Positions 14,149 through 36,264 of a stretch of 49,200 bases of DNA are shown here, piece by piece. The translations under genes and the position numbers were made by a program. The notes below the pieces were generated by a model that was given only the letters and a program-made list of their open reading frames with translations, did no database searches and was not told the origin of the DNA. Each line of letters opens with the position of its first letter. Position 1 is the first letter of the stretch. This DNA comes from an uncultured Anaerolineaceae bacterium (GTDB taxonomy: Bacteria > Chloroflexota > Limnocylindria > Limnocylindrales > CSP1-4), in contig CAYMTJ010000004.1 in assembly GCA_964393345.1 (NCBI GenBank), positions 7,503-56,702 of the forward strand, given 5' to 3'.

Positions 14149-14224
14149 TCCCGGGCACCTGCCAGCCATCTCGGGGCCGATCGTCCCCGACCGTACCGGG
14201 ATCCCGCGACCACGAGAGGCCCGC

Positions 14225-18577: not shown

Positions 18578-20154
18578 GGGGCGCTGGGCCGGCGGTCGAG
18601 CACGCGGATGAACAAGCCGATCTCCTCGGGCGCGGGGCGGTCGATCACGTACCGGGATTCGAGATAGGGCACGACCGCCTGGTTCTGCCGGATGACGTAG
18701 ACGGGCCGTCGCCCGAGGTTGGCCTCGATGACGTCGGTCATCGTGCCGAGCCCCTCGGCCTGACGGGTCGTGTCGTCCACCACGACGATATCAGGCCGGC
18801 GGCCCTCGATCCGCTGCGCGTACCAGAGCACCGTCGAGTAGCTCCAGCCGCTGATCACGACCGCGTCGCGCTCGACGAGCGGGAGCACGGTCTCGATCCA
18901 GGTCCGTGCCCGGACGTCGGTCGTCCGGTCGACGGTCTCGAACCGCGCGCTGAGCGAGGCGGCCGTCGGCGCAAGGAGCGCGGCCGCGAGCAGCCCCGCC
19001 ACGATCGCGGTCCCGGCCGGCCGCGGGTCGCCGGGCCCATCGGCGTTGGCGATCGCCGGCAGCCGCGGGGCCAGGAGGATGGCCGCGCCTTCGGCGACGA
19101 CACCCACCAGGATGGCGATCCAGGTCCACGCGACGAGGGCGGGACCCAGGTAGTAGCGCCCGATGTCCGCCGCGGGATACGAGGCGGTGAAGACCAGGGT
19201 GATCGCCGCGGCCAGGCCGGTCAGGACCGCGAACGAGGGGCGCCTCACGGCCGTCACGAGGAACGCGATGGGGATGGATGCCGTCAGGACCCCGAACTGG
19301 CTCACGGCCAGGTCGACGAGCGCGGCGAGCTTCGTGGCGGCGTCGCCCGGGACATCGCCGACGTCACCCTGGAACTGCTGTCCGAGGACCACATACCAGA
19401 AGCCATCCCACGTCTGCGGGGCCCCATACACGAGTCCGGCCCGAAACGGGCCCGCCCGGAGCGGCAGTTCCGCATAGACCGACACGATCGTCGCGGCGAG
19501 CACGGCGACACACGCGATGACGAACCGGGGCCGACGCAGGATCCCGGGAGCGACCCACAGGACGTAGACCCCGATGGCGGGAGCGAGCAGGAGCGTGAGC
19601 GAGTGGTTCCCCACCGAGAGGCCATAGGCGACCGTCGCGGCCAGGAGCCATCGATCCGACGGTCCGGCGGTGGGGTCGGCGACCCGATCCGCCCAGCCGA
19701 CGAGCAGCCGCAGCAGGACGGCGACGAACACCAGATGGAGCGCGTGCGGGTCCGCGTGCGTGCCGATGGCCCAGGCGATGGGCGTGAGTGCCAGCCCGAT
19801 GCCGGCCGCCACGCCGATCGTCGTGGAGCGCGTGAGGGTCCGGACGAGATCCGCGGTCACGCCGGCGGCCACCGCGACGAGGATCGCCGACAGCAGGTTC
19901 ATCCGGAACGCCGGGTCGCCCAGGGGCTGGAAGACGACGGACGCGATCCAGCCGAGGAGCGTATAGGTCGGGTAGCCCGTGGGATGCGCCGTGCCCATGA
20001 GCGGGCCGACCGCCTGGAACTCGCCGGTGTCCCAGAACTCGAGCCCGGGCTGGAGGGCCATCCGGGCGGCCGCGAACGCCACGATGGCGACCGCCACCGG
20101 GGGCCCGAAGGTCGAGGGGTCCCAGCGGCGACCCTGTGCTACGCTCCGATCCAC
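18574..20154 (-). CDS. DUF2723/TMEM260-like GT-C membrane glycosyltransferase (putative protein O-mannosyltransferase)
   Basis: WDTGEFQ..GTAHPTGYPTY motif, RMNLLSA, GNH, multiple TMs, RYYL, and a C-terminal soluble domain. Confidence 0.8.
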   Translation of the reverse strand: MDRSVAQGRRWDPSTFGPPVAVAIVAFAAARMALQPGLEFWDTGEFQAVGPLMGTAHPTGYPTYTLLGWIASVVFQPLGDPAFRMNLLSAILVAVAAGVTADLVRTLTRSTTIGVAAGIGLALTPIAWAIGTHADPHALHLVFVAVLLRLLVGWADRVADPTAGPSDRWLLAATVAYGLSVGNHSLTLLLAPAIGVYVLWVAPGILRRPRFVIACVAVLAATIVSVYAELPLRAGPFRAGLVYGAPQTWDGFWYVVLGQQFQGDVGDVPGDAATKLAALVDLAVSQFGVLTASIPIAFLVTAVRRPSFAVLTGLAAAITLVFTASYPAADIGRYYLGPALVAWTWIAILVGVVAEGAAILLAPRLPAIANADGPGDPRPAGTAIVAGLLAAALLAPTAASLSARFETVDRTTDVRARTWIETVLPLVERDAVVISGWSYSTVLWYAQRIEGRRPDIVVVDDTTRQAEGLGTMTDVIEANLGRRPVYVIRQNQAVVPYLESRYVIDRPAPEEIGLFIRVLDRRPSAP

Positions 20155-20183
20155 CTTCCACGCTCGTGCAGGAGCCGTTCCCG

Positions 20184-23100
20184 GTGACTGGCCCCGATTC
20201 CGGTGGGACCGAGCGAGGCACAGGCGCGCCAGCGCGGTCGACCGGGTCGCGAGGAGCCGCGGGCGCGATCCTGATCGTCCTCGCCGTCGGACTCGCCCTC
20301 CGCCTCATCATCGCATACCTCCTCCCCGGATCCGGCTTCAAGGTCGACCTGGATTCCTTCCAGTTCTGGGCGGCGGATCTCGCCACGAACGGGCCGTGGG
20401 GCTTCTACGAGCGACCCTTCTTCCACGACTACACGCCCGGGTATCTCTACGTCCTGTGGCTGGTCGGGGTCGTCGGGAGCGCGCTCGGGGGGATCGGCGA
20501 TCTCATCAAGATCCCGCCGATCCTGGCCGATCTCGCGATCGGCTGGCTCGTGGCCTCGATGGTGCTCGAGCTGGGCGGGCGACGCCGGGTCGCCGTCGGG
20601 GCGGCCATCGTGGCCGTCCTCAACCCGATCGGCTGGTTCGACTCCGTGGTCTGGGGACAGGTCGATTCGTTCGGGGTGATCTTCCTGCTGCTCGGCCTGC
20701 GGTCGCTCTGGCGTGACCAGCCCGAGCGGGCCGCGATCTTCACCGTGATCGCCGCGATCATCAAGCCACAGCTCGGGATCCTGGTGCCCCTGGTCGCGGT
20801 GGTGACCATCCGGCGGGCCCTGTGGCCGGTGGGTGGTGCGGGCGATCCGGCGCGGACGGGGCATCCCTGGCGCATCGTGACCACGGCGGTCGCCGGGCTG
20901 GCGACGGCCGTCGTCGTGCCGCTCCCGTTCGGGCTGTCGCCGGTCGGGCTCATCGAGCAGCTGCTCTCGACCGGCGGCGGCTACCCGTACCTGACCGTCA
21001 ACGCCTACAACCCCTGGGCCGTCGTCGTCGGCGATGCCGGCTACAGCCTCGCGAACGCGGGCCAGTGGGTCTGCGACGTCGCCCTCGGAGAGATCTGCGG
21101 TGCCGGCACGTCGTCGTTCGCGGGAGTCCCGGCGATCGCGTTCGGCTCGGCGCTGCTCGTGGCGGGGTTCGGGGTCGTGCTCGCGTTCGTCGCCCGCCGT
21201 CCGGATCGGCTGACGCTGCTCGTCGCGCTCGCGGTCCTGGCCCTCGCGTTCTTCGTCCTTCCGACCCGCGTCCACGAGCGGTACGGGTTCCCGTTCTTCG
21301 CCCTCGGCGCGATCCTCGCCGCCATCTCGTGGCGCTGGCGGATCGCGTACGTGGTCCTGTCCGTCGGCACGTTCCTGAACATGTACGTGGTCCTGACGAC
21401 GCTGTACCCGGGGAACCCGTCGATCGCGGACTGGTTGGGGATCGGCCAGTGGATCCGGACCGAGGTCGGTGTCATGACGATCGTGATCCTGCACACCACG
21501 GGCTTCGTCTGGGCGCTGCTCCAGCTTCGGACCGCACCATCCGAGCGGCTCGCGGACGAACTCGACGACGCGGCGGCCTGGGACGACGACCCGTGGCTCG
21601 AGGACCTCCCGGACGACGACCCGGTCCGCGGGTCCGAGCACGACGACCGGCGAGGTGCGGACGCGTGGGACGGAGACCGGCCAGATGTCCCGCCGGTCCA
21701 TCCTTGGGCGGCTGCACCGGCCGCGGTCGCGGCCCCGATCGCCTTCGCCGACGACGTCGTGGACTGGGACGGGCCGCCGGCCGCGCTCCCGACCTGGACG
21801 CCGCGCGCCGGGATGGCGGACCTCGGCGTGGCGGGCTGGATCCGTGACCGATGGTCGGCCCGGTCCATCCGACCGGACCGCAGCGGCTCGCTCCTCGCGG
21901 AAGGGGGCGGGCGACTCGATCGCCTCGACCTGTGGCTGTTGGTGGTGCTGGTCATCGCCAGCATGACGCTGCGGACGTTCCGTCTCGCCGAGCCGTACCA
22001 GATGCACTTCGACGAGGTCTACCACGCACGGACCGCGACCGAGTTCCTCCAGGCCTGGCGATACGGCGAGTCGCACGACATCTACGAGTGGACCCACCCG
22101 CACCTCGCGAAGTACGCGATGGCCGCGGGCATCGTCGCGTGGGGCCAGGATCGCGTCGCCGCCACGAGCGATCTCGGTGTCCCGGTGCGGGCCGCCGCGA
22201 TCGACCCGCGGCGCGCCGACGCGTCGGTCCCGGGTGGGATCGCCGGCGACCGGCTGTACATCGCCACGGGAAGCGAGTTGCGCGCGTATGACCTCCGGTC
22301 GCGGACGCTCGCGGGGACGGTCGATGGACTGGACGGGCTCGGCGCCCTCGCCGTCGATCCCGACACCGGTGACCTGTTCCTCGGGTTCGACGACGGCCGT
22401 GTGGCGACCCTCGAGCCCGGGACGATCGGCGTCGACGGGTTCCGCACCGATGTGTCCGAACTCGCCCGGACCGACGGGCCGGTCTCGCGCCTCTTCCTGA
22501 CCCGCGACGGGACCAGCGTGGTGGCCGCGGGGTCGGACCGCCTGCAGATCTTGGACCGCTCCGACGGCTCCCTCGTGGGCCGAGCCGATCTCCCCGGGTT
22601 GGCGGACATCGCCGACGGTGGCACCGGTGCCGTCCTCATGGCCATCCCGTCCGAGGTCGCCGATCCGGCCGCCGCCGCGGCCGTGCTCGCCGAGATCCTC
22701 GGCGGTGACGCGGCCGACTACGAGACGACCCTGGCGACCGATGCCGACTCGGTGGTGGTCGACGGTCCGGGGACGGGCCAGACCCGCACCGATGTCGAGG
22801 CCGCGATCGAGGACGGACGGCTGGCCGGTCTCTCGATCGAGGAATCGGATCGACTGGCCGTGGCAACGAGGGCGGGGCTGACCTTCATCGACGCCGCGGA
22901 CGCGACCACGGTCACGACCATCGATATGGGCGGCGGCGCGCACGCCATCGGTGCGGCGACCTTCGACGGGACGCGCCTGTACGTCGCGAGTGGGACCGTG
23001 GACGAGCCCGCCTACCACGTGGTCGCGATCGCCGGGGACCAGGCGAAGGATGGTCCATCGGACCGCGGCACGCACCCGCTTCCCGGGCTGGGGTCGCGGG

Positions 23101-25511
23101 TGGTCTACGACGAGGCCACCCAGATGATCCACATCCTGGGCCGGGCGCCCGGGGTCGGGGCCGCCGGACCCTGGACGGTCTACGTCATCGAGCCGCACGC
23201 CAACGCCGTCTACGCCGATGCGCGTCTCGCCGACGGCTTCGAGCCGGTCGCGTGGGCCGCCGACGTCGCCGCCGACTTCCCGTCCCAGGACCGACAGGAG
23301 CTGCTCGTCTTCGACGGGGCCGGGTCGACGGCCGCGATCGACATCGGATCGCACGCGTTCGCCTGGCGGTTGCCCGGCGTCATCGCCGGCACGCTGATGC
23401 TCGCCTGCCTCTACCTCCTGGCCAGGATCCTGTTCAAGCGACGGCTCGTCGCCGGTCTCGTGGGGCTGTTCGTGCTCGTGGACGGCATGACGTTCGTCCA
23501 GTCACGGATCGGGATGAACGACGCCTACGTCGGGCTGTTCATCGTGGCCGCGTACACCGTCTTCGCGGCGATCTGGACTGGGTGGTGGCGCTCGCGCTGG
23601 GCGTTCTGGGCCGGCCTGCCCGTCGTGGGACTCCTGCTCGGACTGGCGCTCGCCGCCAAGTGGCCCGCCCTGTACGCCATCGGCGGCGTGGGCCTGCTGA
23701 TCCTCGCCAGGAGCGCCCTCGGACGGAGCGTCGTGATCCTGGGCCTGATCGGGTTGACCGGCGTGCTCGGGTACATGGCGATCAGCGTGCCGGAGGGGCA
23801 GGGTCTCGGCAATCTCCTCTTCCTGCTGGTCATGACCGCCCTGACCCTGATCGCGGTGGTCGTGGCGATCTTCCACCCGATCGCCTGGACCGACGACGAG
23901 ATGCGGTTCGCCCTCATCGCCCCGACGGCCGGCGGGGCAGTCGTCTTCTTCGTCGCCCTCGCCACCGGCCGCCTGGAGAACGTCTATCCGATCGGGCCGA
24001 TCGCCGTCTCGCCGCTGACCCTCGCGGTGGCCCTCGGGGTGGTGTCGATCGCCGCCTACGCGGTCTTCCGGGTCGCGGGGCGATTCGGCTTCGGGCCGCT
24101 GGCGATGCCGCCCGGTCCGGGCGACCCGGCGCGGCTGCTCGCCCCACCGGCACCACCGCCCGATGGCTGGCTCCGGCCCGGCTGGCGTCTGGGGCTGCCG
24201 GTGCTGTGGGCGGCCGCGAGCCTCCTCGCGATCCCCCTCGCGGTGTACGTCGCCTCGTACATCCCGTGGGCGATGGTCGACGACCACCAGCTGTTCACCG
24301 GGTGGCCGGCCGGCCACGACGGTCAGACGCTCGTCGCGCTGACCGGTCAGATGTACGGCTACCACAACGGGCTCGTCTCACCGCACCCGGCGTCCTCGCC
24401 GTGGTGGGCGTGGCCGCTCGACCTCAAGCCCGTCTGGTTCTACGCCGAGGGTCTCGCCGGCGGGACGACCGCGGCCCTTTATGACGCCGGCAATCTCGTG
24501 GTCTGGTGGATGGGGGTCCCGGCCCTCGTCTTCGTGAGCGCGATGGCGTATCGCCGCCGCAGCCTCGCCCTGGCGCTCATCGCCATCGGGTTCGCATGCC
24601 AGTGGATCCCATGGGCGCGCATCGACCGGGCGGCCTTCCAGTACCACTACTACACGGCCCTCCCGTTCGTCATCGCCGCCCTCGCCTACTTCATCGCCGA
24701 GCTGTGGCACGGCGCCTCGAGGGTCGCGTGGCAGCTCGCGCGCCTGGGGGGCGCGGCCGCGATCGTGCTGCCCGGCGCCCTGTGGCTGTTCTCGCGGCCG
24801 CTGTGCGCGATCGTCGGCGTCGAGAGCGTGAACCCCGGGTCGCAGGCGTGCCCGGCGGTGATCCCGGACTTCGTGCTGACGAGCCGGACGGCCGGGCTGG
24901 CGACGGTGGCCGGCGTCGGCGCGCTCGTGGTCGTCCGGACGGTCCTCTCGCTGACCGGGGAGGACGGCCGACCACGCGGCGGTACGTGGGCGTGGGCCCA
25001 GCCGCTCCTGATCGCGGGTGCGGTCGCGGCCCTGGCGATCGTCGCGACGGCCGCGATCCCGAACGTAGAGCTGGTCCACCTGACCCGCCTCCCCGTGGAG
25101 CCGATCGTGCTGGTGGCGGCGATCCCGATGGTCTACCTGGCGATGGCCGTGATCGGCGGGCGGGACCCGCGTCGGTTCGTCGTGGCGTACATCGCCGCGG
25201 CCGTCGGATGGTTCGTGGTCCTGTACCCGAACATCGCGGCGCTGCCGCTCCCATCGGCGATCCATAACGCGTACCAGGGCATCGTGCCCACCTATCTCTA
25301 CGCGTTCCAGTTCTCGGTGAGCAAGATCGACCGGAACGACCCGCTGCCGCTGTTCACCCCCGGACTCGCGCTCCTCCTCGTCGCGGTCGCGGTGACCGCG
25401 CTGGTGGTCGCCTACTCGGCCTGGGTGTGGCGCGTGTCGCTCGTGGATGCCTCGAGCGCGGCCTCTGGCACGTCCGATGCGGATGGTCTCGCGCGGAGCG
25501 GCGACGCCTGA
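20184..25511 (+). CDS. Giant (~1775 aa) double GT-C fusion: ALG6/ALG8-like domain + acidic linker + PMT (GT39)-like domain with a ~400-aa soluble insertion
   Basis: Domain 1: DYTPGY, WGQVDS, IKPQ, TRVHERY. Domain 2: HFDEVYH, THPHLAK, AWRLPG, QSRIGMND, AAKW, HPASSPWWAWP, FQYHY. RBS CAGGAG before GTG20184; TGnTACGCT at 20137-20145. Confidence 0.8.
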   Translation: MTGPDSGGTERGTGAPARSTGSRGAAGAILIVLAVGLALRLIIAYLLPGSGFKVDLDSFQFWAADLATNGPWGFYERPFFHDYTPGYLYVLWLVGVVGSALGGIGDLIKIPPILADLAIGWLVASMVLELGGRRRVAVGAAIVAVLNPIGWFDSVVWGQVDSFGVIFLLLGLRSLWRDQPERAAIFTVIAAIIKPQLGILVPLVAVVTIRRALWPVGGAGDPARTGHPWRIVTTAVAGLATAVVVPLPFGLSPVGLIEQLLSTGGGYPYLTVNAYNPWAVVVGDAGYSLANAGQWVCDVALGEICGAGTSSFAGVPAIAFGSALLVAGFGVVLAFVARRPDRLTLLVALAVLALAFFVLPTRVHERYGFPFFALGAILAAISWRWRIAYVVLSVGTFLNMYVVLTTLYPGNPSIADWLGIGQWIRTEVGVMTIVILHTTGFVWALLQLRTAPSERLADELDDAAAWDDDPWLEDLPDDDPVRGSEHDDRRGADAWDGDRPDVPPVHPWAAAPAAVAAPIAFADDVVDWDGPPAALPTWTPRAGMADLGVAGWIRDRWSARSIRPDRSGSLLAEGGGRLDRLDLWLLVVLVIASMTLRTFRLAEPYQMHFDEVYHARTATEFLQAWRYGESHDIYEWTHPHLAKYAMAAGIVAWGQDRVAATSDLGVPVRAAAIDPRRADASVPGGIAGDRLYIATGSELRAYDLRSRTLAGTVDGLDGLGALAVDPDTGDLFLGFDDGRVATLEPGTIGVDGFRTDVSELARTDGPVSRLFLTRDGTSVVAAGSDRLQILDRSDGSLVGRADLPGLADIADGGTGAVLMAIPSEVADPAAAAAVLAEILGGDAADYETTLATDADSVVVDGPGTGQTRTDVEAAIEDGRLAGLSIEESDRLAVATRAGLTFIDAADATTVTTIDMGGGAHAIGAATFDGTRLYVASGTVDEPAYHVVAIAGDQAKDGPSDRGTHPLPGLGSRVVYDEATQMIHILGRAPGVGAAGPWTVYVIEPHANAVYADARLADGFEPVAWAADVAADFPSQDRQELLVFDGAGSTAAIDIGSHAFAWRLPGVIAGTLMLACLYLLARILFKRRLVAGLVGLFVLVDGMTFVQSRIGMNDAYVGLFIVAAYTVFAAIWTGWWRSRWAFWAGLPVVGLLLGLALAAKWPALYAIGGVGLLILARSALGRSVVILGLIGLTGVLGYMAISVPEGQGLGNLLFLLVMTALTLIAVVVAIFHPIAWTDDEMRFALIAPTAGGAVVFFVALATGRLENVYPIGPIAVSPLTLAVALGVVSIAAYAVFRVAGRFGFGPLAMPPGPGDPARLLAPPAPPPDGWLRPGWRLGLPVLWAAASLLAIPLAVYVASYIPWAMVDDHQLFTGWPAGHDGQTLVALTGQMYGYHNGLVSPHPASSPWWAWPLDLKPVWFYAEGLAGGTTAALYDAGNLVVWWMGVPALVFVSAMAYRRRSLALALIAIGFACQWIPWARIDRAAFQYHYYTALPFVIAALAYFIAELWHGASRVAWQLARLGGAAAIVLPGALWLFSRPLCAIVGVESVNPGSQACPAVIPDFVLTSRTAGLATVAGVGALVVVRTVLSLTGEDGRPRGGTWAWAQPLLIAGAVAALAIVATAAIPNVELVHLTRLPVEPIVLVAAIPMVYLAMAVIGGRDPRRFVVAYIAAAVGWFVVLYPNIAALPLPSAIHNAYQGIVPTYLYAFQFSVSKIDRNDPLPLFTPGLALLLVAVAVTALVVAYSAWVWRVSLVDASSAASGTSDADGLARSGDA

Positions 25512-26662
25512 GGCACCTCCCCACGGAAGCCCGCCGGGAGATGGCCGCTCGCCGCGAGCCGGCGGATGACGAAGCCGTAGTACGCCTCCACCTTGGCGGT
25601 CACGTTCGGCCAGCTGAAGTCTTCGGCTCGCTCGCGCCCGGCGGCGCCCATCCGCTCGCGGAGGTCCTCGTCGTCGAGAAGCCGCGCGATCGCGACGGCC
25701 ATCGCCTTCGGTTCGCGTGGCGGGACCAGGAGTCCCTCGCGGCCGCGGCGGACCACGCCCTTGTAGCCGTGGATGTCCGAGCAGACGATCGGCGTGCCCG
25801 CCGCCATCGCCTCGAGCAGGACGATCCCGAAGGATTCGCCGCCGGTCGCCGGCGAGACGAACACCTGGGCCGTGCGATACAGCTGGGCCTTCTCGGCGTC
25901 GGTGACCCGACCCAGGAACTCGACGCCCTGGAGACCGCGCGTGGCCACGTACCGGCGCGCCTCGCGTTCCTGCGGACCGGTCCCGACGACGAGGAGTCGT
26001 GTCCCGTAGCCGGTCCGTCGCAGGATGCGCTGCGCCTTGAGGAGGTGGAGCAGGCCCTTACGCGGTTCGTGCCGACCCACGAACAGCAGGTTCGGCGTCC
26101 CGTCGTTCCAGCGCGCCAGGGGGACGGCGCTGCCGAACCGGGCGACGTCGACGCCGTTGGGGATGACCTTGTAGTCGCCCGGGAAGAAGCGGTCGATGAA
26201 GTGTCGGGCGGCGGCGCTGACCGCCATGCGTCCATGGAGCTTCGCCGCGTGGCCGCGCAGCACCCGACTCCCGAACTCGTAGGACGGCGAGAACCCGGCG
26301 TAGGCATGGAACGTCGCGACGTTGACGCTCGTGGATTCGCGCAGCAGGAACAGCGACAGGAACGGGACGAACGGCTCGTGGAAGTGGAGCAGATCGAACT
26401 GCTCGCGGGCGAGCATGTCGCGAACCTGGCGGATGTAGCGCGGCGAGAACGTCAGGGTGCCGACCGACCCGTTGGTCGGCATCGAGAACCCGACGCCGAC
26501 GCGGATGATGTCGCCCTCGGACGCCCGCTGCGTCCCGTGGCTGGCCGTGATGATCCGGACGTCGTGGCCGCTCAGGCGCAGGTTCTCGTACAGGAACTGG
26601 ACGTGCTGCGCGACGCCCCCGGCGCCCGGGTAGATGTACGGGCAGACGAGGCCGATCTTCAT
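25412..26662 (-). CDS. pimA: GT4 phosphatidyl-myo-inositol alpha-mannosyltransferase, PimA-like
   Basis: MKIGLVCPY..GGVAQHV, HFHEP, ATFH, GRHEPRKG, GGESFGIVLLEAMAAG. ATGA overlap with the PHP gene; in an operon with pgsA and ino1. Confidence 0.8.
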   Translation of the reverse strand: MKIGLVCPYIYPGAGGVAQHVQFLYENLRLSGHDVRIITASHGTQRASEGDIIRVGVGFSMPTNGSVGTLTFSPRYIRQVRDMLAREQFDLLHFHEPFVPFLSLFLLRESTSVNVATFHAYAGFSPSYEFGSRVLRGHAAKLHGRMAVSAAARHFIDRFFPGDYKVIPNGVDVARFGSAVPLARWNDGTPNLLFVGRHEPRKGLLHLLKAQRILRRTGYGTRLLVVGTGPQEREARRYVATRGLQGVEFLGRVTDAEKAQLYRTAQVFVSPATGGESFGIVLLEAMAAGTPIVCSDIHGYKGVVRRGREGLLVPPREPKAMAVAIARLLDDEDLRERMGAAGRERAEDFSWPNVTAKVEAYYGFVIRRLAASGHLPAGFRGEVPQASPLRARPSASDVPEAALEASTSDTRHTQAE

Positions 26663-27474
26663 GCCCGGTCGCCGTCGGGCGGCAGGTAGCGGGGCGGCCG
26701 CCGCGTGCCACCGGGATAGCCATGGTCCCGGCCCGTGCCGTCGCGGCGGATCCGTCCGACGAGCTCGGCCCGGGCATCGACGCCGCGCTTTCGAAGCTGC
26801 TGCCCGAAGGTCCCGAACTGCCCCACCGTCCCGTGGAACCGGCCCTGGTGGGTCGTGGTGCCCGCGGCGATCGCCGTCCGCAGGTCGGCGAAGGTGCGGC
26901 CCGGATAGGTGGTCGCCCCGATCCCGACCGCATCGAGCGCATGGGCGTCGCTGTTGCCGACGTGCGCGAGCCCGTGCCGGTCCGCGAACGCGACGACCCG
27001 CCGGTGCCATGGGCGCCCGAGGGCCGTCGGGTTGAACGTCTCGATCGCGTCCGGGTGGACCCGCGGATCCGGGTCGTCGAGGAGGCCGCGGATGACCCAG
27101 CCCTGGGCGCAGAGCGGGTACGGGACGAGCGGGTGGGCCGGGATCGCGAGACCGCCCTGATCGTGGATCGCCGCGATCGTGTCGCGCAGGGTCCGGTACG
27201 AGCGGACCGGTCGGGTGATGTCGAGCGCGAGGAGGTGTCCCCCGAGCGTCGTGACCTCCTCGCCGACGATGACCTCGAACGGCAGGCCCCGATCCACGGC
27301 GATGGCCCGGCCCGCGATGGCCGCATCGATCCGTTCGTGGTCCGTGATCGCGATGACGTCGAGGTCGCCCAGGGTCGCGACCCGCTCGAGGACGGCGGTG
27401 ACGGGCGCCGTGCCGTCTGAAGCCGCCGTGTGGATGTGCAGGTCCGCCCGGCCGCGCGCCGGTGCATCGGTCAT
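26659..27474 (-). CDS. PHP-family metallophosphoesterase
   Basis: ADLHIHT..SDG, AITDH, GEEVTT..GHLL, AHP, GNSDAH. ATGA overlaps at both ends. Confidence 0.9.
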   Translation of the reverse strand: MTDAPARGRADLHIHTAASDGTAPVTAVLERVATLGDLDVIAITDHERIDAAIAGRAIAVDRGLPFEVIVGEEVTTLGGHLLALDITRPVRSYRTLRDTIAAIHDQGGLAIPAHPLVPYPLCAQGWVIRGLLDDPDPRVHPDAIETFNPTALGRPWHRRVVAFADRHGLAHVGNSDAHALDAVGIGATTYPGRTFADLRTAIAAGTTTHQGRFHGTVGQFGTFGQQLRKRGVDARAELVGRIRRDGTGRDHGYPGGTRRPPRYLPPDGDRA

Positions 27475-28412
27475 GTCGCTGGCCCCGTCTCGAGATCCGG
27501 CCAGATCGGGAAGAACGCCGCCCACCACTGGTCGGGTGCGTCCTCGATGATGCGCTCGAACGCGACCGCGATGCGCGCGACCGTCGCCTCCACCCGGTCA
27601 CGGCGCGACCCTTCGGTGGGGACGTCGATCGCCTCGACCCGACCGATGTATCGCCCGACGCCGGTCCGGCGCACGCCGACCACGTAGGTCGGCGCACCGC
27701 TTTCGACCGCGAGCATGGCCGGCCCGAGCGGCAGCCGCGCCGGGGCGCCGAAGAGCTCGACGGGGGCGCCTCCGCCGGTGATGTCCCGGTCGCCGACGAG
27801 CCCGACCGGCGTCCCGCGCCGCAGGCTCGCCAGCAACTCGCGTCGCGCCTCGCGAAGCCCCACGATCCGCAGGCCGGACGCCCCGCGCGAGCGGATGAAC
27901 CACGCCTGGAGGTCCGGGTCGTCGATCGTCTCCATCGGCGCGACCGCGCCACCGACGCGGGCGGCCAGGAAGAGTGCCGGCAGCTCGATGGCGCCGAAGT
28001 GGAGACCCACGAACATGACGGCACCACCCGTCCGGAACGCGGCCTCCACGAGCTCCGGGGTCTCCACGACGATCCGACGGTCGAGGTCACCGACCCCGAT
28101 GGCGGGCGTCCGCGCGACCTCGAGGTAGTACCGCGCGTAGTGACGGAACGCCGAGCGGACCAGGCGCTCCAGCGCCCGTGGGTCCTCGGCGGCGGCGCGG
28201 ACCAGCGGACCGCCGCGGGCCTCCGCAGCGAGTGCGCGACAGACGCGTCGAAGGTTCCGTCGGGCCTGGGCGGCGCGGTCGGGGGCGAGTCGATACCAGA
28301 CGTCTCCCCCGAATGAGGCCAGCCGCGTCAGCGGTCCCTCGGGCAGGCGGCAGACGAGCCAGGACCCCGCGATCAGGGCTCGCGTGCGGAGCCACCGCAC
28401 CGCCCGTCGCAT
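27471..28412 (-). CDS. LpxL/HtrB/PatA-family lipid acyltransferase (copy 2)
   Basis: F..YARYYLE, HFGAIE, GLVGDRD, FG..ARLPLGPAMLA, PDQW. TGATG overlap with the upstream gene. Confidence 0.85.
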   Translation of the reverse strand: MRRAVRWLRTRALIAGSWLVCRLPEGPLTRLASFGGDVWYRLAPDRAAQARRNLRRVCRALAAEARGGPLVRAAAEDPRALERLVRSAFRHYARYYLEVARTPAIGVGDLDRRIVVETPELVEAAFRTGGAVMFVGLHFGAIELPALFLAARVGGAVAPMETIDDPDLQAWFIRSRGASGLRIVGLREARRELLASLRRGTPVGLVGDRDITGGGAPVELFGAPARLPLGPAMLAVESGAPTYVVGVRRTGVGRYIGRVEAIDVPTEGSRRDRVEATVARIAVAFERIIEDAPDQWWAAFFPIWPDLETGPAT

Positions 28413-29458
28413 CAGCGGAACGCCGGCGCGGGACCCGGGTCCGGTTCGCCCGCCTGCATCAGGGTCGCCCGTCGCTCGAGGTCGGCCGCCTCTGGGGCGG
28501 TGGCGGGCCAGATCGGCTTGAAGCTGTACCACTGCTCGGGGGCCGCGCGGACGGTCGCCTCGAGTGCGTCGGCCAGGGCCTGCGTGGCCCGCTGCAGCTC
28601 GGCCGGGTCGCCCGAGGCGACGTCGATGGGCCCGTCCGGCCAGGACACGACGAACCGGCCATCGGTGCCGCGCCGGATCGTGATGGGCAGGATCCGCGAG
28701 CCGGTCTTCGCCGCCAGCGTCGCCGGCCCAGCCGGCAGCGCTGTCCACGCCCCGAAGAGCCGGACGGGGATGCCGTCGCTCCGATAGCCCCAGTCCACGA
28801 GGAGGGCCAGCATCTCGCGCCGGCGGAGGACCCCGAAGATCGCCCGCAGGTTGCGCCACGCGACGACCTTGACGCCCCAGGATTCGCGTTGACGACGCAG
28901 CAGCTCGAAGAGCTCGGGGAACGAGGAATCGTCGGCGACCACGCTGATCGGCAGCGCGTGATCGGCGATCGAGGCGGCGACGGCATCGTTATTGCCGACG
29001 TGCCCGACGGCGAAGATCAGGCCGCCGCCCGGGGCGTCGCGCCAGATCCGGCGGATCCCCTCGGCGTCCATGTCCGGGACGAGGCCCGCGATCGACTCGG
29101 CGGGCATCGACGGAAGCCGCATCAGTTCGACGAGGTAGCGGCCGTACTCCCCGTAGGCCCGCAGCGCCAGCCGCCGGACGCGCGGATCCGAGGGCGGCAG
29201 ACCCAGGACGTGGCCGAAGTTCCGGTTGGACCAGCGTCGTTTCGCCGGCCACAGGAGGTAGCTCGCCTGGGACAGCCGGGCGAGCACGGGCATGGCGATC
29301 CCCGACGGGACGGTGGCGAGCACCCACGAGAACGCGCGGTAGCCCAGCACCGCGAGTCGCTCGACGATGCGCGGACTGGCGCCACCGCGTCGATGCGGCG
29401 CCTCGAGGCGCCGATCACCCGCCGTCGCGGTCTCGGACCGACGTCCTTCGGCCGTCAC
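28412..29458 (-). CDS. LpxL/HtrB/PatA-family lipid acyltransferase (copy 1)
   Basis: [47 protein letters not shown]29458 overlaps the ino1 stop (GTGA). Confidence 0.85.
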
Positions 29459-30693
29459 GACGCCGCGGTGGCGACCGTGGCCTTCTTGCCGGCGAGCCGA
29501 CGGTACGTCCGCTTGGCGGCCGTCTCCGTCCCCACGAGGGTCTCGTCGTCCTCGCCGCGGATGAACGCTTCCACCCGGTTGAAGGCGATGTCGTCGTGGA
29601 TCTGGCGCGGCGGGCTCTTCATGAAGTAGCTCGACGGCGCGACGAGCGTGCCCTTGAGCCCGCGGTCGAGACCCAGCTTCAGGCAGCGGATGGCGTCGGT
29701 GATGACGCCCGCGCTGTTGGGGCTGTCCCAGACTTCGAGCTTGAGCTCGGCGTTGAGCGGCACGTCGCCGAAGGTCGTGCCCTCCATCCGGATGTAGCAC
29801 CACTTGCGGTCCTTGAGCCACGGCACGTGGTCGCTGGGGCCGACGTGGATGTCGTCGTCGTCGAGCTCGTAGTCGAGCATCGACGTGACCGCGTTGGTCT
29901 TGGAGATCTTCTTGGACTCGAGGCGCTCGCGCTCGAGCATGTTCAGGAAGTCCGTGTTGCCCCCGAAGTTGAGCTGGTACGTGCGGTCCAGCCGCACGCC
30001 GCGGTCCATGAACAGCCGGGTCAGGACGCGATGGGTGATCGTCGCGCCGACCTGGCTCTTGATGTCGTCGCCGATGACCGGCAGGCCCTTCTCGGCGAAC
30101 CGACGCTGCCAGTACGGCTCGCGGCCGATGAACACCGGGATCGCGTTGACGAACGCGACGCCGGCGGCGAGCGCCTGCTCGGCGTACCACTTGGTGGCTT
30201 CCTCGCTGCCGACCGGGAGGTACGACACCATCACGTCGACCTCGCGCTCGCGGAGGATGCCGGTGATGTCCGCGGTGGGACCGGGCGCCTTCTCGATGAT
30301 CTGGCTCACGTACTTGCCCAGGCCGTCGTGGGTCATGCCGCGCTCGACGGTCACGCCGGTCTTGGCGACCTGCTGGAACACGAAGGTGTTGTTGGGCTTC
30401 GCGTAGATGGCCTCGGACAGGTCCTTGCCGACCTTGTTCTTGTCGATGTCGAACGCGGCGACGAAGTCGATGTCGCGGACGTGGTAGCCACCGAGATTGA
30501 CGTGCATGAGGCCCGGGACGAAATCGTCGTCCTTGGCGTCCTCGTAGTAGTAGCGACCCTGCACGAGGCTGCTCGCGCAGTTGCCGACGCCGACGATGGC
30601 GACGCGGACCTTGCCGTCGCCGCGCCGGCCCGAACCCGCCCAGGTGTTGCCGGGCGTGCTGCCGTTCTTGCCGTTCGAACCGTTCTTGGCCAT
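29455..30693 (-). CDS. ino1: myo-inositol-1-phosphate synthase
   Basis: [87 protein letters not shown] before ATG30693. Confidence 0.96.
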
Positions 30694-30707
30694 CTTGCTC
30701 CGTACTC

Positions 30708-31412
30708 CTACGACTGCGGTGATGTTGACGTGTCTGCGGTGGTCTGTCGCTTCGCCTGCGCGCGGACGTGCAGGATCCGCTGGATGGTGGTGATGGTGGC
30801 GCCGAGCGTGATGATGACGAGGGCGGCGGTCAGGCTGCCGCCCTGCGGGAAGTCGCACACCCCCGCGCACGCGGCGTTCGGTGGGGGGACTTCGTAGATG
30901 GGCCCGGTCGCCAGGATCAGCCCGAGGCTGAGGACGACGAGACGAACCTCCCTCGGCATGACGCCGACCGCGGCCATCCCGGTCCCGGCCGTGAACCCGA
31001 GGCCCTCGGACTTGGCCCGCGTGTAGCTGACCATGAACGCGGCACCCATCGCCGCGGCGGCGAGGATCGCGCCTTCCCGGAACCCGGCGTAGGCCGTGCC
31101 CGCGACGACCCCGAGATAGACGAACGACTCGCCCCATCGGTCGAAGACGCTGTCCATGAACGCGCCGAGCTTGCTGACCTTGCCGGTCGCACGGGCGAGA
31201 GTGCCGTCGAACATGTCGAAGGCGCCGCCGAGGAAGATGACGAGCCCGCCGACGACCCACTGCTGCTGGCTGACGAGGATGGCGCCGACCATCGTGATCC
31301 CGAAGCCGATGAGCGTGAGCGCGTCCGGGGTCAGGCCGATCCGGCCCATCCCGAGCGCGACCGGCTCGAAGACCTTCTTGACGCGATCGCGCGCGTCGTT
31401 CGACATCGCCAT
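30708..31412 (-). CDS. pgsA: CDP-alcohol phosphatidyltransferase, phosphatidylinositol-phosphate synthase (PgsA1-type)
   Basis: [15 protein letters not shown]...[10 protein letters not shown] signature, [12 protein letters not shown]. Adjacent to ino1. Confidence 0.88.
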
Positions 31413-31756
31413 CAGGCGGCGCCCTGTCCGGCGATCCCCAGGATCGCGCGCTCGCGCTCGGCGACCTCGCCGAATGCCTCGGGCCGGAGCGTGCAGACGG
31501 TCTCGCGACCGACGCGCCGGCTTTCGATCAGTCCGGCGACGCGCAGCCGCTTGAGGTGATGGCTGACCAGGGGCTGTGACAGACCCACGTGGTCGATCAG
31601 CTCGCGAACGGACGCCTCGCCCTCGGCCAGGCGCCGGACGATGCGCAGGCGGTTCACGTCGGCGAGTGCCTTGTGGAAGGCGCGCAGGTCGCGCAGGTCG
31701 TCGGGCTGGAGCACGATCGACGCGAGGGTCGAACGGATCCGGGCGGGGGTCGGCAC
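31412..31756 (-). CDS. ArsR/SmtB-family transcriptional regulator heading the inositol-lipid operon
   Basis: [12 protein letters not shown]...[43 protein letters not shown] before GTG31756 (alternative TTG31804). TGATG overlap with pgsA. Confidence 0.88.
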
Positions 31757-31781
31757 GGGTCTGGGGGTCTCCTCCGCCGTC

Positions 31782-31843
31782 GCATCAACAGCGGTTGATA
31801 TCAACGGGCGTTGATGCTAGGCGGACGGCGAGGGTCGTGTCAA
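31782..31843 (-). promoter_or_regulatory. sigma70 promoter with tandem double-palindrome operator
   Basis: TTGACA (31843-31838), N18, TAGCAT (31819-31814). ATCAAC-N4-GTTGAT occurs twice (31784-31799 and 31800-31815) over the -10 and start site. Confidence 0.8.
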
Positions 31844-32099
31844 GCACGATCTCGTGCCTGGGCGTCGGTGGATCCCCGGTCGTGTCACCCGCTCATCCGA
31901 ACCTGCTGACGTGGGACGGTCCGTGACGACGTCCGGTGCGCTTTGACGGCTGGCGGTGACCGTCCCACGACAACGCCGGACGGATCTGACGCGGAGCGGC
32001 ACGGGATGCGGTGGCCGGTGTCGGGGATGTCGCCACGTGCCGTGGAGCGGTACGGCTCCATAGCCGAGGCAGCCGGCCACTCGGCCTACACTCCGCGGC

Positions 32100-33728
32100 A
32101 TGGATCGCCGCTCCGCGCTGATCGTGCTCGCGGTGTTCGGCGTCGGGGTGTTCCTGAGCGGGCTGGAGCTGATGATCACCGCGGTCGCCCTGCCGTCGAT
32201 CCTCGACGACCTCGCGGATCCGACGGCTGGCTCGGCTTGGGTGGAGCTGCGCAAGGCGAGCTGGATCATCAACGGCTACCTGCTGGTCTATGTCCTGACG
32301 ATGCCCCTCGCCGGGCGTCTGACGGACCTGTGGGGCGCCCGACGCCCCCTGCTGGCAGCCCTCGCCCTGTTCACGCTCGGGTCGTTCCTCGCCGGACTGG
32401 CCCAGACCATGGACCAATTGATCGCCGCCCGGCTCGTGCAGGCGGCCGGTGGCGGCGTCCTCGTCCCGGTGGGGACCGCGGCCGCAGCCCATCTCTACGA
32501 CGGGGCCGCCAGGGGCCGCGCCCTCGGGGTGATCGGCGCGCTCACGTTCCTCGGGATGGCCGCCGGCCCGTTCGTGGGAGCCGCCATCCTGGGGTCCTTC
32601 CATCCAAGCGAGGCGATCGCGGCGGCGCCGTTGCCGGTCGCGGCCCAGGACCTGTTCGCGCCGGCCTGGCGCTGGGTGTTCTTCATCAACGTGCCGGCGG
32701 GTCTCGTCGCGCTCCTCATCGGGTGGGCCGCGTCGAGCGGCTGGGACACGCCGCGACGGCACGGTCGAACCGATCTCCCCGGGGCCGTCTGGTTCGGCCT
32801 GGCGCTGCTCGCGCTCCTCCTTGGTCTGACGCTCATCGGCAGCACGGACACCGTGCTGGAGACGCTCGACCCGGCCACGATCATCCCGGCCCTCATCGGT
32901 GCAGCGCTCGTCCTCTTCGTGAGCTTCCTCGTCCGCGGCCTGCGACACCGTGATCCCTTCATCGATCCGCGGCTGTTCGCGATCCCGGCCTTCTCCGCGG
33001 CCACGCTCGTCTCACTCCTCACGGGCTACGCGTTCGCCACCGCGATCATCGGCGGGGCCGTGTTCGTGGACCGCGTCCTATACGGCGGACCGGACGAGCA
33101 GCGACTCGCCCTCGGGGCGCTGGCCGCCGCTACGGCGCTCGGCGCGCTGGCGTCCGGGTTCCTCGCGCGCGTGCTGTCGCTGCGCTGGCTGTCGATCCTG
33201 GGCATCGCGCTGGGCATCGCCGGGCTCGCCGCGATGTCGACGTGGGTGCCCGAGACGCCCGTGCTGTTCGTGGCGGTCACCCTGGGGGCGTTCGGCCTCG
33301 GGTTCGGGCTCACGGTGACCCCTCGCTCCGAGGCCGCGGTGGAGGCGGCCGGCCGACGGGCGTACGGCGCGGCATCGTCGATGGTGGTGGTCGCGCGGAC
33401 GATCGGCATGGCCGTGGGTCTCGCCGTCCTGACCGCCTACGGCTCGACCACGATCGACGGGCTCGTCGACCGCGTCTACGCCACGCCGGACGCGTTCCGC
33501 CAGATCATCCCGGAGGCGCTCCGGGGCCGGGACTTCCGCGACCCCCTCGTCGTCGACGCCCTGGAGTCGTGGGCCTCGCGAGAAGCGGCCGGGATCATGG
33601 TCGGGCTGTTCGTGGCCGCGGCCATCGTCATGGCGGCAGCTGCTGCCCCGTCGCTGATCCTCGGCGGGCGGCGACGTATGCTGACCGCGGATGACCGGCC
33701 GGCGACCCGATCCAACCGTGGCTACTGA
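32100..33728 (+). CDS. MFS transporter, DHA2/EmrB-QacA-like (about 14 TM)
   Basis: LELMITAVALPSI, WIINGYLL, GRLTDLWGARR, ARLVQAAGGG, WRWVFFINVP, PFIDPRLF. TACACT-N7-ATG. Confidence 0.9.
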   Translation: MDRRSALIVLAVFGVGVFLSGLELMITAVALPSILDDLADPTAGSAWVELRKASWIINGYLLVYVLTMPLAGRLTDLWGARRPLLAALALFTLGSFLAGLAQTMDQLIAARLVQAAGGGVLVPVGTAAAAHLYDGAARGRALGVIGALTFLGMAAGPFVGAAILGSFHPSEAIAAAPLPVAAQDLFAPAWRWVFFINVPAGLVALLIGWAASSGWDTPRRHGRTDLPGAVWFGLALLALLLGLTLIGSTDTVLETLDPATIIPALIGAALVLFVSFLVRGLRHRDPFIDPRLFAIPAFSAATLVSLLTGYAFATAIIGGAVFVDRVLYGGPDEQRLALGALAAATALGALASGFLARVLSLRWLSILGIALGIAGLAAMSTWVPETPVLFVAVTLGAFGLGFGLTVTPRSEAAVEAAGRRAYGAASSMVVVARTIGMAVGLAVLTAYGSTTIDGLVDRVYATPDAFRQIIPEALRGRDFRDPLVVDALESWASREAAGIMVGLFVAAAIVMAAAAAPSLILGGRRRMLTADDRPATRSNRGY

Positions 33729-34765: not shown

Positions 34766-35479
34766 CTAGGGGCAGGTCACCGGCTTCGCCCTGGGGTTCG
34801 CCTCGTCGTGATCGGCCGATCCGTGCGACAGCGGCTTGGCGATCACCTGCAGCTTCGGCGCGGTCCCCACCCCCTCCGAGGTCTGCAGCCAGAGCTCCTC
34901 CTCCGTCGCCGACAGCGCGTCCGAGAGCCCGGTGTCGTAGGGGACGTGGCGCCGGACCTTGGTGATCTCGTAGAGGTAGTGCTGATCGTCGCTCGTCCAC
35001 ACCTCGACCACCATCCCCAGCATCTTCTTCCCGTTCGAGACCTTCGACGCGTCGAGGAGCGGCAGGAACATCCCCGCCTGGGCGTGGGCGTAGATGTAGG
35101 TGGCCCGGCCCTCGCCCGGCTGCCCGAGCAGCGGATCCTCGAAGTACAACGCGACGTCGCACGGGACCTTCGCCGTGACCTGGAGGATCACCGGAAGGTC
35201 GATCCGGAGTGCCGCGATGCGCACCCTCGTCGCGACCCGGTCCGGCGGGATCGTCGGGGTGGCCGACGGCGCGCTCGATCCGAGCGGCGGGAGCGTCGCG
35301 AGCGACAGCGAGGGGGTCGCGACCGGGCTGCCGGACGCGCCGGGCGTGGGACTGGCGTCGCCGACGGCGGTCACCGGCGCGGAGAAGCTCAGCATCCCCG
35401 CGGCGAGCATCGTGACGCCGATCGCGGTCAGCAGCGCCGGCAGCAGTCGCGTTCGAACCGGCTCCACCACTCCTGACAT
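34766..35479 (-). CDS. Sortase-fold membrane protein (class E/F-like) with catalytic Cys replaced by Ser
   Basis: TM anchor, S/P/T linker, RVRIAALRIDLPV, PGEGRATYIYAH, YEIT, LWLQTSEG, KLQVIA. TGnTACGAT 9 nt before ATG35479. Confidence 0.7.
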   Translation of the reverse strand: MSGVVEPVRTRLLPALLTAIGVTMLAAGMLSFSAPVTAVGDASPTPGASGSPVATPSLSLATLPPLGSSAPSATPTIPPDRVATRVRIAALRIDLPVILQVTAKVPCDVALYFEDPLLGQPGEGRATYIYAHAQAGMFLPLLDASKVSNGKKMLGMVVEVWTSDDQHYLYEITKVRRHVPYDTGLSDALSATEEELWLQTSEGVGTAPKLQVIAKPLSHGSADHDEANPRAKPVTCP

Positions 35480-35548
35480 CGGAGCGGCATCGTAGCAGCG
35501 GCCCCCCGGACACGCCGACGGGCCGCTCGTACTGGTACGCTCGGGCCC

Positions 35549-36214
35549 ATGTGGCCACGCCTCTCGATCGTCGCTGGCTTGCTGGCCGGGATCGCCGTGG
35601 CGGGCCTGGTCTTCGGCGGGATCCTGTTCCTCGGGCCCGGGCCCGCCGGTCTGCCCTCGCCGCCGGCATCGGCGGTGGTCTCCCCGTCGCCCGGCGCGAG
35701 CGCCTCCGAGACACCGGTCACGACGGCGACCGCGACAGCCACCGGCACGGCGACCGCGTCGCCGGCATCGGGCCCCTTCCACATCGGCGAGGTCGCCCCG
35801 GCGCTCGTGGTGCCCCAGGTGGGTGGCGGGACCATCGACCTCGCGAACCTGCGCGGCCAGCCGATCTGGGTCAACTTCATGGGGACCTACTGCCCACCGT
35901 GTCGTGACGAGTTCCCCCTGATGAACGGCTTCGCGGCGCGCTACGCGGACGACGGCCTCGTCATCCTCGCGATCGACGTGCGGGAGGACGAAGGCACCGT
36001 CGCGAGCTTCGCCAACGAGCTCGGGGCGATCTTCCCGCTCGGCCTGGACACCGACGGCTCCGTGGCCGACGCGTGGGGAGCGCTGGCGCTGCCCGTCCAC
36101 TTCTGGATCGACACCGACGGCGTCATCCGGGACGGCGCCCTCGGCGGGATCGGGGCCGACATCATGGCCGAGGGGCTCGCCAAGATCCTGCCCGGCGTGG
36201 AGGTCACGCCCTGA
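35549..36214 (+). CDS. TlpA/ResA-like membrane-anchored thiol-disulfide oxidoreductase
   Basis: TM plus S/T/P linker, IGEVAP, LRGQPIWVNFMGTYCPPCRDEFP (CxxC), LPVHFWIDTDG. TGnTACGCT-N7-ATG. Confidence 0.9.
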   Translation: MWPRLSIVAGLLAGIAVAGLVFGGILFLGPGPAGLPSPPASAVVSPSPGASASETPVTTATATATGTATASPASGPFHIGEVAPALVVPQVGGGTIDLANLRGQPIWVNFMGTYCPPCRDEFPLMNGFAARYADDGLVILAIDVREDEGTVASFANELGAIFPLGLDTDGSVADAWGALALPVHFWIDTDGVIRDGALGGIGADIMAEGLAKILPGVEVTP

Positions 36215-36264
36215 CGACCGGCCAAGAGCGTGGCGCGGACCGGCCGCTGTCCGAGCGGGCGGCC

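Follow-up and report, generated by a model that had tools for sequence, protein, structure and literature searches.

In mycobacteria, pgsA1 (Rv2612c), patA (Rv2611c) and pimA (Rv2610c) follow one another in this order, and in M. tuberculosis ino1, the gene for myo-inositol-3-phosphate synthase, lies elsewhere in the genome. The pathway by which these bacteria make phosphatidylinositol (PI) and acylated phosphatidylinositol mannosides (PIMs; AcPIMs when acylated) is described in PMC9490103 and PMC6506517. A second system is the gene cluster of Bacteroides thetaiotaomicron, with inositol phosphate synthase (MIPS, BT_1526), phosphatidylinositol phosphate (PIP) synthase (PIPS, BT_1523) and a PIP phosphatase of the PgpA family (BT_1525) (Heaver et al. 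2022, PMC9246714); the same paper presents bacterial inositol lipids as rare and largely found in Actinobacteria, with recent additions in Bacteroidetes. Here we analyse a stretch of 49,200 nucleotides (‘the window’) from an uncultured soil bacterium assigned to the Limnocylindrales (Chloroflexota, class Limnocylindria; assembly GCA_964393345.1, contig CAYMTJ010000004.1, positions 7,503 to 56,702). It carries seven minus-strand genes that run in one direction from 31756 to 25412: arsR, PIPS, ino1, two acyltransferase genes, a gene for a PHP-family phosphoesterase and a pimA-like GT4 glycosyltransferase gene (Table 1). Limnocylindrales are abundant soil and freshwater bacteria. We consider it likely, judging by gene families, gene order and regulatory sites, that the seven genes constitute one ArsR-repressed operon that builds an inositol phospholipid and its acylated glycosyl derivative.

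Layout, conservation and predicted pathway of the operon

In the pathway that the gene families suggest, Ino1 would convert glucose-6-phosphate to inositol-3-phosphate, which PIPS would join to CDP-diacylglycerol to give PIP. The PHP phosphoesterase would then remove the inositol phosphate group of PIP to yield PI, and the PimA-like GT4 would add a hexose to PI, most probably a mannose unit supplied by GDP-mannose. The two PatA-like acyltransferases, which diverged long ago, would contribute one acyl chain each, leading to an Ac1/Ac2-PIM1-like lipid. We infer all substrates and products, as well as the PHP step, the identity of the sugar and the sites of acylation, from sequence.

Genes were called from third-position G+C by frame (GC3) and by start-codon mapping; the window has 72% G+C, and raw lists of open reading frames (ORFs) are full of spurious frames. 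Both approaches agree with an earlier note on this DNA, made from the letters alone, which had seen seven co-oriented genes in 25412..31756 with stop/start overlaps at five of the six junctions. From arsR onwards, the genes at the first and the fourth junction overlap by 1 nt (TGATG), those at the third by 4 nt (GTGA) and those at the last two by 4 nt each (ATGA); the second junction is a gap of 14 nt that contains GGAG. The labels given there (ArsR-pgsA-ino1-acyl-acyl-PHP-pimA) are likewise borne out by matches to Pfam, NCBIfam and solved structures. The operon had also been called self-contained, which is true for the lipid head group and not for its precursors, as CDP-diacylglycerol synthase and a GDP-mannose pyrophosphorylase-like gene are encoded elsewhere.

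Table 1 Features of the operon and its upstream region (positions in the window)
Feature	Position	Strand	Remarks
Sigma-70-like promoter TTGACA-18-TAGCAT (10/12)	31814..31843	-	directly upstream of arsR
Putative ArsR operator, two abutting perfect palindromes ATCAAC-N4-GTTGAT	31784..31815	.	overlaps -10 element
arsR, ArsR/SmtB-family winged-helix regulator	31412..31756	-	114 aa from GTG 31756; 130 aa if TTG 31804
PIPS, CDP-alcohol phosphatidyltransferase, predicted phosphatidylinositol-phosphate synthase	30708..31412	-	234 aa, PF01066
ino1, myo-inositol-3-phosphate synthase	29455..30693	-	412 aa, PF01658 126.7 bits
PatA-like acyltransferase 1	28412..29458	-	348 aa, PF03279 108.2 bits
PatA-like acyltransferase 2	27471..28412	-	313 aa, PF03279 107.9 bits
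PHP-family metallo-phosphoesterase, candidate phosphatidylinositol-phosphate phosphatase	26659..27474	-	271 aa, PHP_C + PHP
pimA-like GT4 glycosyltransferase	25412..26662	-	416 aa, closest solved structure PimA

Among 31 genomes from the genus and a sister family, 29 have a GT4 ortholog, the two without a strong match being 75% and 65% complete. All 15 relatives' loci fetched around this ortholog, from two families of the order, carry the identical seven genes in identical order, and ino1 is 62-93% identical at relatives' loci. The full operon is also kept in the sister family, with genomes of 1.0-1.4 Mb. A profile search with the PHP protein, on contigs of one genome per species, yielded 80 named loci, in 79 of which an acyltransferase gene stands upstream of PHP and in 76 of which pimA follows PHP directly; two of the remaining four end at a contig edge and two (L048, L077) have no pimA match. 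Because the order of the seven genes is kept in 15/15 loci, and that of PHP then pimA in 76/80, the arrangement is not due to chance. Outside the class, PIPS stands at the opposite end (arsR-ino1-acyl-acyl-PHP-pimA-PIPS), and throughout the phylum the cluster begins with arsR. Of 301 Chloroflexota genomes sampled, 221 have a PimA ortholog (E at most 1e-55), and pimA and PIPS together form the invariant core of the cluster. Tallies over the 301 genomes include up to five flagged as unpublished (G068, G174, G202, G256 and G300), whose omission changes nothing material. The loci L048 and L077, both from long-read metagenome-assembled genomes (MAGs), run from arsR through PHP and gave no pimA match further downstream, although 10 kb of sequence was covered, and the PHP match of L077 is broken into two parts. 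Either frameshift errors or a true loss could account for this.

The best solved relatives of PIPS are the PIP synthases of Renibacterium and Mycobacterium (5d92, 5d91, 6h53, 6wm5). It contains the complete CDP-alcohol transferase motif, DX2DGX2AR...GX3DX3D as quoted in PMC9246714, in the form D66-D69-G70-A73-R74...G83-D87-D91. Of the three residues of M. tuberculosis PgsA1 that were probed for inositol-phosphate binding in PMC6506517, R94 and Y133 correspond to Arg and Tyr, and R137 is conservatively replaced by Lys. Among NCBIfam models, PIPS scores 129.9 bits with archaetidylinositol phosphate (AIP) synthase (NF040950, cut-off 180), 109.5 bits with PIP synthase (NF045883, cut-off 170) and 99.6 bits with a BT1523-type model, in each case below the cut-off; the AIP/PIP synthase models, at 100-130 bits, stand against about 25 bits for pgsA and pssA. 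By these scores PIPS is a divergent member of its family. Synthesis of di-myo-inositol phosphate (DIP) was considered and rejected: PIPS matches the IPCT/DIPPS model with no more than 51 bits, confined to the transferase part, and its domain search showed no cytidylyltransferase. Ino1 matches TIGR03450 end to end with 541.9 bits, below the cut-off of 638.

PIPS is the sole PF01066 match in this genome. Of 31 genomes examined in the order, 30 of which have a completeness of at least 90%, 29 likewise contain exactly one such match and two show an additional one of 23-24 bits. Other families of the class possess a second, PgsA-like PF01066 copy. CDP-diacylglycerol synthase (CdsA) was found in 16/16 genomes. 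The PLD-like match over the cut-off in genome G000 is polyphosphate kinase, and a second, weaker one lies in an ORF cut by the contig end; weak paired PLD-like matches in 700-830-aa frames of relatives are probably polyphosphate kinase as well. A strong PLD-type match (85 bits) is confined to one of 16 genomes (G154), with weaker matches over the cut-off in G109, G022 and G026. As far as the families searched show, the PIPS operon appears to be the only recognisable CDP-diacylglycerol-consuming pathway in Limnocylindrales, and all CDP-diacylglycerol would flow there. Being the sole recognisable consumer, it looks like the main route to phospholipid head groups and probably supplies bulk membrane lipids, and such a role as the only outlet would explain the retention of all seven genes even in the smallest genomes.

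The promoter upstream of arsR is the only promoter-like site in 25200-32200, where shuffled sequences give 0.3 on average. Two matches to the operator palindrome occur in the window against 0.01 expected, and they cover the -10 element and the positions just downstream. The same palindrome, single or tandem, was found in 18 of 154 loci; in the three that were compared (L011, L014 and L049) it is located just upstream of the arsR match. ArsR itself matches HTH_5 (PF01022, 59.7 bits) and NF033788 (83.9 bits, above the cut-off of 55), and inspection by eye revealed no CXC or His-rich metal site. The sequence GGAGGAG lies 10 nt before its GTG start, and the alternative TTG start falls within the putative operator. 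Autorepression by ArsR is the simplest reading of this putative operator.

Three observations tell against this picture of the operon. All enzyme matches to NCBIfam equivalog models fall under the curated cut-offs, and the operon enzymes are, by these scores, divergent members and not close orthologs of the mycobacterial enzymes. This genome is 82% complete, so that the claim of a single PF01066 protein depends mainly on the relatives. Finally, metatranscriptome contigs matching the region are short, 90-95% similar and concentrated on ino1 (29535-30619), with sparse coverage of the rest of the region. Four metatranscriptome runs, all of one study, share 5-7% of sampled words with the query; we rejected the contigs as a sign of operon expression, since at 90-95% they are look-alikes from relatives or other organisms. 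An acylated inositol glycolipid made from one regulated operon, as the earlier note had proposed, nevertheless remains the best reading of the gene families and of an operator at a single promoter-like site.

The PHP phosphoesterase and the step from PIP to PI

A phosphomonoesterase is the only step from glucose-6-phosphate to the acylated glycolipid without a gene, and the PHP protein is the only enzyme of the operon without a role. In PMC6506517 the mycobacterial enzyme for the step from PIP to PI is described as ‘yet unidentified’, and the only bacterial PIP phosphatase known to PMC9246714 is the PgpA-family protein of Bacteroides. We found no PgpA (PF04608) match in this genome or in any of the 41 genomes of the class, with B. 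thetaiotaomicron as a positive control; if the PHP protein does perform the PIP step, it would thus be a non-homologous replacement. A literature search for PIP phosphatases with a PHP domain led only to the Bacteroides work, and for mycobacteria no PHP-type enzyme was named in the papers found.

The protein matches PHP_C with 42.5 bits, above the cut-off, and PHP with 25.6 bits, just under the cut-off of 26.4. Its metal ligands (H13, H15, D20, H46, E73, H80, H114, D176 and H178) are invariant in 17 cluster-type sequences. Structure prediction gave a confident PHP fold (predicted local distance difference test, pLDDT, 88.6), and the top Foldseek matches of the model are all PHP proteins. The C-terminal 45 residues are net positive in 15/17 sequences and the body is net negative in 17/17; such a basic tail fits binding to an anionic membrane surface.

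PHP-family matches occur in 236 of the 301 genomes of the phylum, and the gene lies within 400 bp of pimA in 83 of the 92 genomes for which both places are listed. In the tree, stand-alone PHP proteins (families f9, f13 and f52, and second copies in G056 and in this genome) fall outside the cluster-linked group with support of 90/86, and the cluster-type PHP was found only beside pimA. Its look-alike clusters in the ESM Atlas comprise unnamed proteins, most often from Chloroflexota or Dormibacterota. A second PHP/PHP_C protein (G000 contig C33, 3475-4053; L158), 38% identical to the operon protein over 190 residues, is not linked to the operon; in the tree its long branch falls outside the cluster-type PHPs.

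A family of natural fusions bears on the role of the protein. In some longer proteins (P0201, P0203 and P0204), a GT4 domain precedes a PHP domain in one chain. A metagenome scan gave 519 relatives; of the 80 loci analysed (L161-L240, on soil metagenome contigs), 55 encode both domains as one uninterrupted full-length frame. Over its whole length the GT4 half can be aligned with the operon PimA (28% over 411 residues; 24-31% across family members), and the PHP half is 34% identical to the operon PHP (30-35% across members). Thirty-five loci are 8 kb or longer: in 25 of these the fusion comes directly after PIPS and ino1, in four more ino1 is cut by the contig start, in five the fusion lies too near the start to tell, and L190 has neither PIPS nor ino1. 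No acyltransferase or arsR matches were found in the fusion loci. In L174, L185, L186 and L189, about 2 kb separates ino1 from the fusion.

The donor site of the GT4 half is lost in these fusions: G15-G16 are replaced by His/Glu, R196 by Glu/Asp, K202 by small residues, E274 by Ala and E282 by Arg/Lys. H118 and R201 are kept in 55/55 sequences and E199 in 51/55, and the PHP half keeps its metal ligands in 53-55 of the 55. Instead of being an enzyme, the GT4 half probably serves as a module that binds lipid, and the whole protein looks like a PIP phosphatase with a built-in module for binding the PI head group. A donor-dead PimA domain that keeps residues of the acceptor side and is joined to PHP behind the two PIP-making genes raised our estimate that the PHP protein of the operon performs the PIP dephosphorylation, which we now put at somewhat better than even. 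Other apparent fusions, acyltransferase-PHP and PHP-GT4 proteins with 55-80% identity to the operon PHP, were discounted; they form one-member clusters on one contig each, and where genes overlap by 4 nt, one frameshift error is enough to fuse them. The family used is the one with GT4 before PHP, at 34-35% identity.

Several findings speak against a PIP phosphatase. Its closest relatives among solved PHP structures include RNase AM and a nucleoside bisphosphate phosphatase, the others being uncharacterised; the Foldseek matches are nucleases, nucleotide phosphatases or proteins of no assigned function, so that the fold points to no lipid substrate, and the weak NCBIfam matches are to nuclease and nucleotidase models. 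PHP is missing at 20/20 pimA loci fetched from genomes without a listed PHP place, and also at L126-L128 and L133. The layouts without it are arsR-ino1-acyl-acyl-pimA-PIPS, ino1-pimA-PIPS or pimA-PIPS alone. No replacement phosphatase was seen beside the reduced clusters, the flanks of L126-L130 and L133 holding housekeeping genes only. In addition, PHP-family paralogs are present in families without PimA (19/19 genomes of f9 and 15/18 of f13). On the evidence of the PHP-less loci, PHP is an accessory to the invariant pimA-PIPS core, and lineages without it must dephosphorylate PIP otherwise or not at all.

These findings would suit an alternative in which the inositol lipids are made as proposed and the PHP protein acts elsewhere, in hydrolysis of a nucleotide by-product or of inositol phosphate, in lipid trimming or in regulation, while an unlinked enzyme dephosphorylates PIP. 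We regard this as rather unlikely, though a serious contender. It leaves both the missing phosphomonoesterase step and the one enzyme without a role unaccounted for, PgpA was not found in the 41 genomes of the class, and the fusion loci, where PHP is joined to a PimA-like domain with a lost donor site directly after PIPS-ino1 and no acyltransferase is present, link PHP with the formation of PI. Dephosphorylation of PIP by the PHP protein is accordingly the role we prefer, with the reserve expressed above.

Glycosylation, acylation and the host lineage

Against solved structures, the GT4 protein matches M. smegmatis PimA (4n9w/2gej) with 225 bits (E about 1e-65, residues 1-363), and the next solved GT4 matches are MshA-type 3c4q at 83.6 bits and PimB' 3okc at 70.9 bits. 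Its orthology to PimA rests on this gap in score together with synteny. Close homologs are named phosphatidylinositol alpha-mannosyltransferase by JGI, and the best 120 database matches are all close relatives. We read the residues off an alignment to solved PimA, checking the N-terminal positions across 118 Chloroflexota sequences as well; the roles of the donor- and acceptor-site residues are those given in PMC9202250. The residues for GDP-mannose binding and catalysis are kept (G15, G16, H118, R196, E199, R201, K202, D253, K256, E274, S275, F276 and E282), with two changes on the donor side, D252 and the guanine-stacking R228 both being Thr. On the acceptor side Y9 and N63 are kept, and the basic helix 77-81 retains two of four basic residues. 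In the 118 homologs, Y9, G15, G16, S65, E95 and H118 are invariant or nearly so, with G15, G16 and H118 strictly invariant.

Activity of the GT4 on PI is likely from this pattern, and some residues plead against it. Q18, Y62, R68 and N97, which are reported to be critical in mycobacterial PimA, are replaced by A, T, T and F, respectively, and position 68 is Arg in only 60 of the 118 Chloroflexota homologs and Thr in 57. One may therefore ask whether the enzyme uses another sugar, or another acceptor (PIP, inositol phosphate or a different lipid), so that the product would not be of PIM type. The four lost residues, the Thr in place of R228 and the fact that no NCBIfam model claims the protein would suit this. 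We nonetheless hold it to be improbable, given 225 bits to PimA against 84 or less to all other solved GT4s, including MshA and PimB', the retention of the GDP-binding D253 and K256 and of the mannose-binding ESF motif, and the near-invariance of Y9, H118 and S65. Moreover, the GT4 gene adjoins the PIP synthase gene in nearly all clusters seen.

PatA is the only solved-structure match of both acyltransferases (82.8 bits for acyltransferase 1 and 64.3 bits for acyltransferase 2), and PRK07920 is their best NCBIfam model, at 130.8 and 135.4 bits, respectively, below the cut-off of 209. The catalytic pair of M. smegmatis PatA is H126/E200; both proteins have the catalytic His aligned and an Asp where PatA has Glu. 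They are about 30% identical to each other. Orthologs from the first (26) and the second (26) position in the operon are split by position on one branch (SH-aLRT 96). This position-specific split, with both copies kept, indicates an old duplication and argues for two different acylation steps. As the inositol acyltransferase of diacyl-PIMs is listed as unidentified in PMC9490103, the two conserved PatA paralogs offer a lead for it.

The earlier note had suspected a non-actinobacterial organism, and the closest named relatives are indeed Limnocylindrales/Limnocylindria MAGs of the Chloroflexota. In the PHP profile search, the best loci, 50-76% identical, are labelled Candidatus Limnocylindrales, Candidatus Limnocylindria, Chloroflexota or ‘uncultured Chloroflexia’; nearly all of the 60 best named loci bear labels of Chloroflexota, Chloroflexia or Limnocylindrales/Limnocylindria, and the few others are short MAG contigs, probably mis-binned. 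Dormibacteria loci count within the same phylum as Chloroflexota in the genome collection used, where the PHP match of the L119 genome has the contig and coordinates of that in G071, a genome of this phylum. By its relatives, the host genome is a member of the Chloroflexota class Limnocylindria and no actinobacterium. That the DNA belongs to an ordinary actinobacterium with the known pgsA1-patA-pimA layout, the case which the earlier note had set against itself, is scarcely credible: the gene families are identical to those of the mycobacterial locus and one of 80 related loci (L103) is labelled ‘uncultured Actinomycetes bacterium’, but L103 nests within the Chloroflexota/Dormibacteria clade of the PHP tree, the relatives' genomes belong to one phylum, which includes the Dormibacteria locus, the operon encloses ino1, a second acyltransferase, PHP and ArsR, unlike the mycobacterial layout, and the control genome of Corynebacterium glutamicum has no PHP_C match.

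The neighbourhood holds further glycan-related genes. A multi-pass membrane protein of 1791 aa (20136-25511, plus strand) converges on pimA, whose 3' end it overlaps by 100 bp. It has PMT and PMT_4TMC domains in its C-terminal third and adjoins pimA in the genus and in genus g5. A PimE-like (GT87) domain in its N-terminal 500 residues was not accepted, as Pfam gave only 17-19 bits, below threshold, and a 7-sequence profile had no PDB match; it is a weak lead. Beside this protein are a GT2 gene and a gene for a TMEM260-like PMT_2 protein (17801-18790 and 18574-20304, both on the minus strand). The 1791-aa protein could serve to extend glycans, either on the lipid or on proteins. Genome G000 has a second cluster of inositol flavour on contig C76 (L155, 1064-7315), with a GNAT/FemAB-like acetyltransferase, a GT4, a 483-aa protein without family and a GT87 protein, and with a gene of the PIG-L family (GlcNAc-PI de-N-acetylase / MshB-like) on the opposite strand; two further GT87 genes are on contigs C28 and C45. 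The window also carries a replication-origin neighbourhood, with rnpA-yidD-yidC-jag divergent from dnaA-dnaN-recF and no gyrB there, as well as complex I genes. Two long frames, 13823-16504 (plus strand, 893 aa), directly after recF, and 34766-36313 (minus strand, 515 aa), look coding from G+C by codon position and match no Pfam family at 1e-5.

Comparison with described systems

A broader reading would join the separate parts: the PHP protein would be a PIP 3-phosphatase non-homologous to PgpA, the single membrane of Limnocylindrales would be essentially PI-derived with di-acylated PI-mannosides as bulk lipids, and one PatA paralog would be the inositol acyltransferase. We put this forward tentatively, as a possibility with the chances somewhat against it. 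The presence of the PimA-PIPS core in about three quarters of the sampled Chloroflexota genomes widens the distribution of inositol lipids, as predicted from genes, and in one order the core appears to be the only pathway for phospholipid head groups. This would alter the view of what some very abundant bacteria of soil and lakes, as yet uncultured, build their membranes from, and of the lipid biomarkers that can be assigned to them. The operon also provides a concrete candidate for the PIP-to-PI enzyme, which is small, soluble and has a natural fusion partner resembling a PI-binding module.

A species description (PMC12453558) reports PI, together with unidentified glycolipids, among the major polar lipids of a Chloroflexota strain in culture, so that PI as such is not new in this phylum. 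In the literature searched, which did not extend to subscription journals and supplements, we found no description of PimA-type genes, of this operon or of a PHP-type PIP phosphatase in Chloroflexota, and a term search of PMC6169038, the paper introducing freshwater members of Limnocylindria, gave no mention of inositol. New here are the single PF01066 protein in the order, the operator, the split of the acyltransferases, the limits of the association between PHP and pimA, and the genomic context of the fusion with its degenerate donor site.

The solved PHP proteins RNase AM (7ug9/9etk), TM0559 (2anu), BVU_3505 (3e38) and Cv1693 (2yb1) share the fold of the operon PHP (Foldseek E 1e-12 to 4e-8), and their sequence similarity to it is mostly in the N-terminal motif; the cluster-type PHP differs by its basic C-terminal tail. 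None of the four is known to have a lipid substrate. The fusion family has the same PHP ligands as the operon protein and the same PIPS and ino1 neighbours, but it is a single polypeptide in which GT4 precedes PHP and the donor residues are lost.

With the cluster of B. thetaiotaomicron the operon shares the clustering of MIPS and PIP synthase genes with a phosphatase gene, here a candidate one, and a predicted route to PI via PIP. There the phosphatase is PgpA and the product inositol phosphoceramide, whereas here the candidate is of the PHP family and the predicted product is a glycosylated, acylated PI. With the mycobacterial pgsA1-patA-pimA locus it has in common a PIP synthase, a PatA-type acyltransferase and a PimA-type GT4, and the predicted chemistry is the same, with PI formed via PIP and then glycosylated and acylated. 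Unlike that locus, the operon, found in the phylum Chloroflexota, includes ino1, a second acyltransferase, PHP and ArsR with its putative operator, and it has no PimB' or Nudix gene; its proteins show modest identity to the solved mycobacterial ones, and some of the acceptor residues of PimA are changed.

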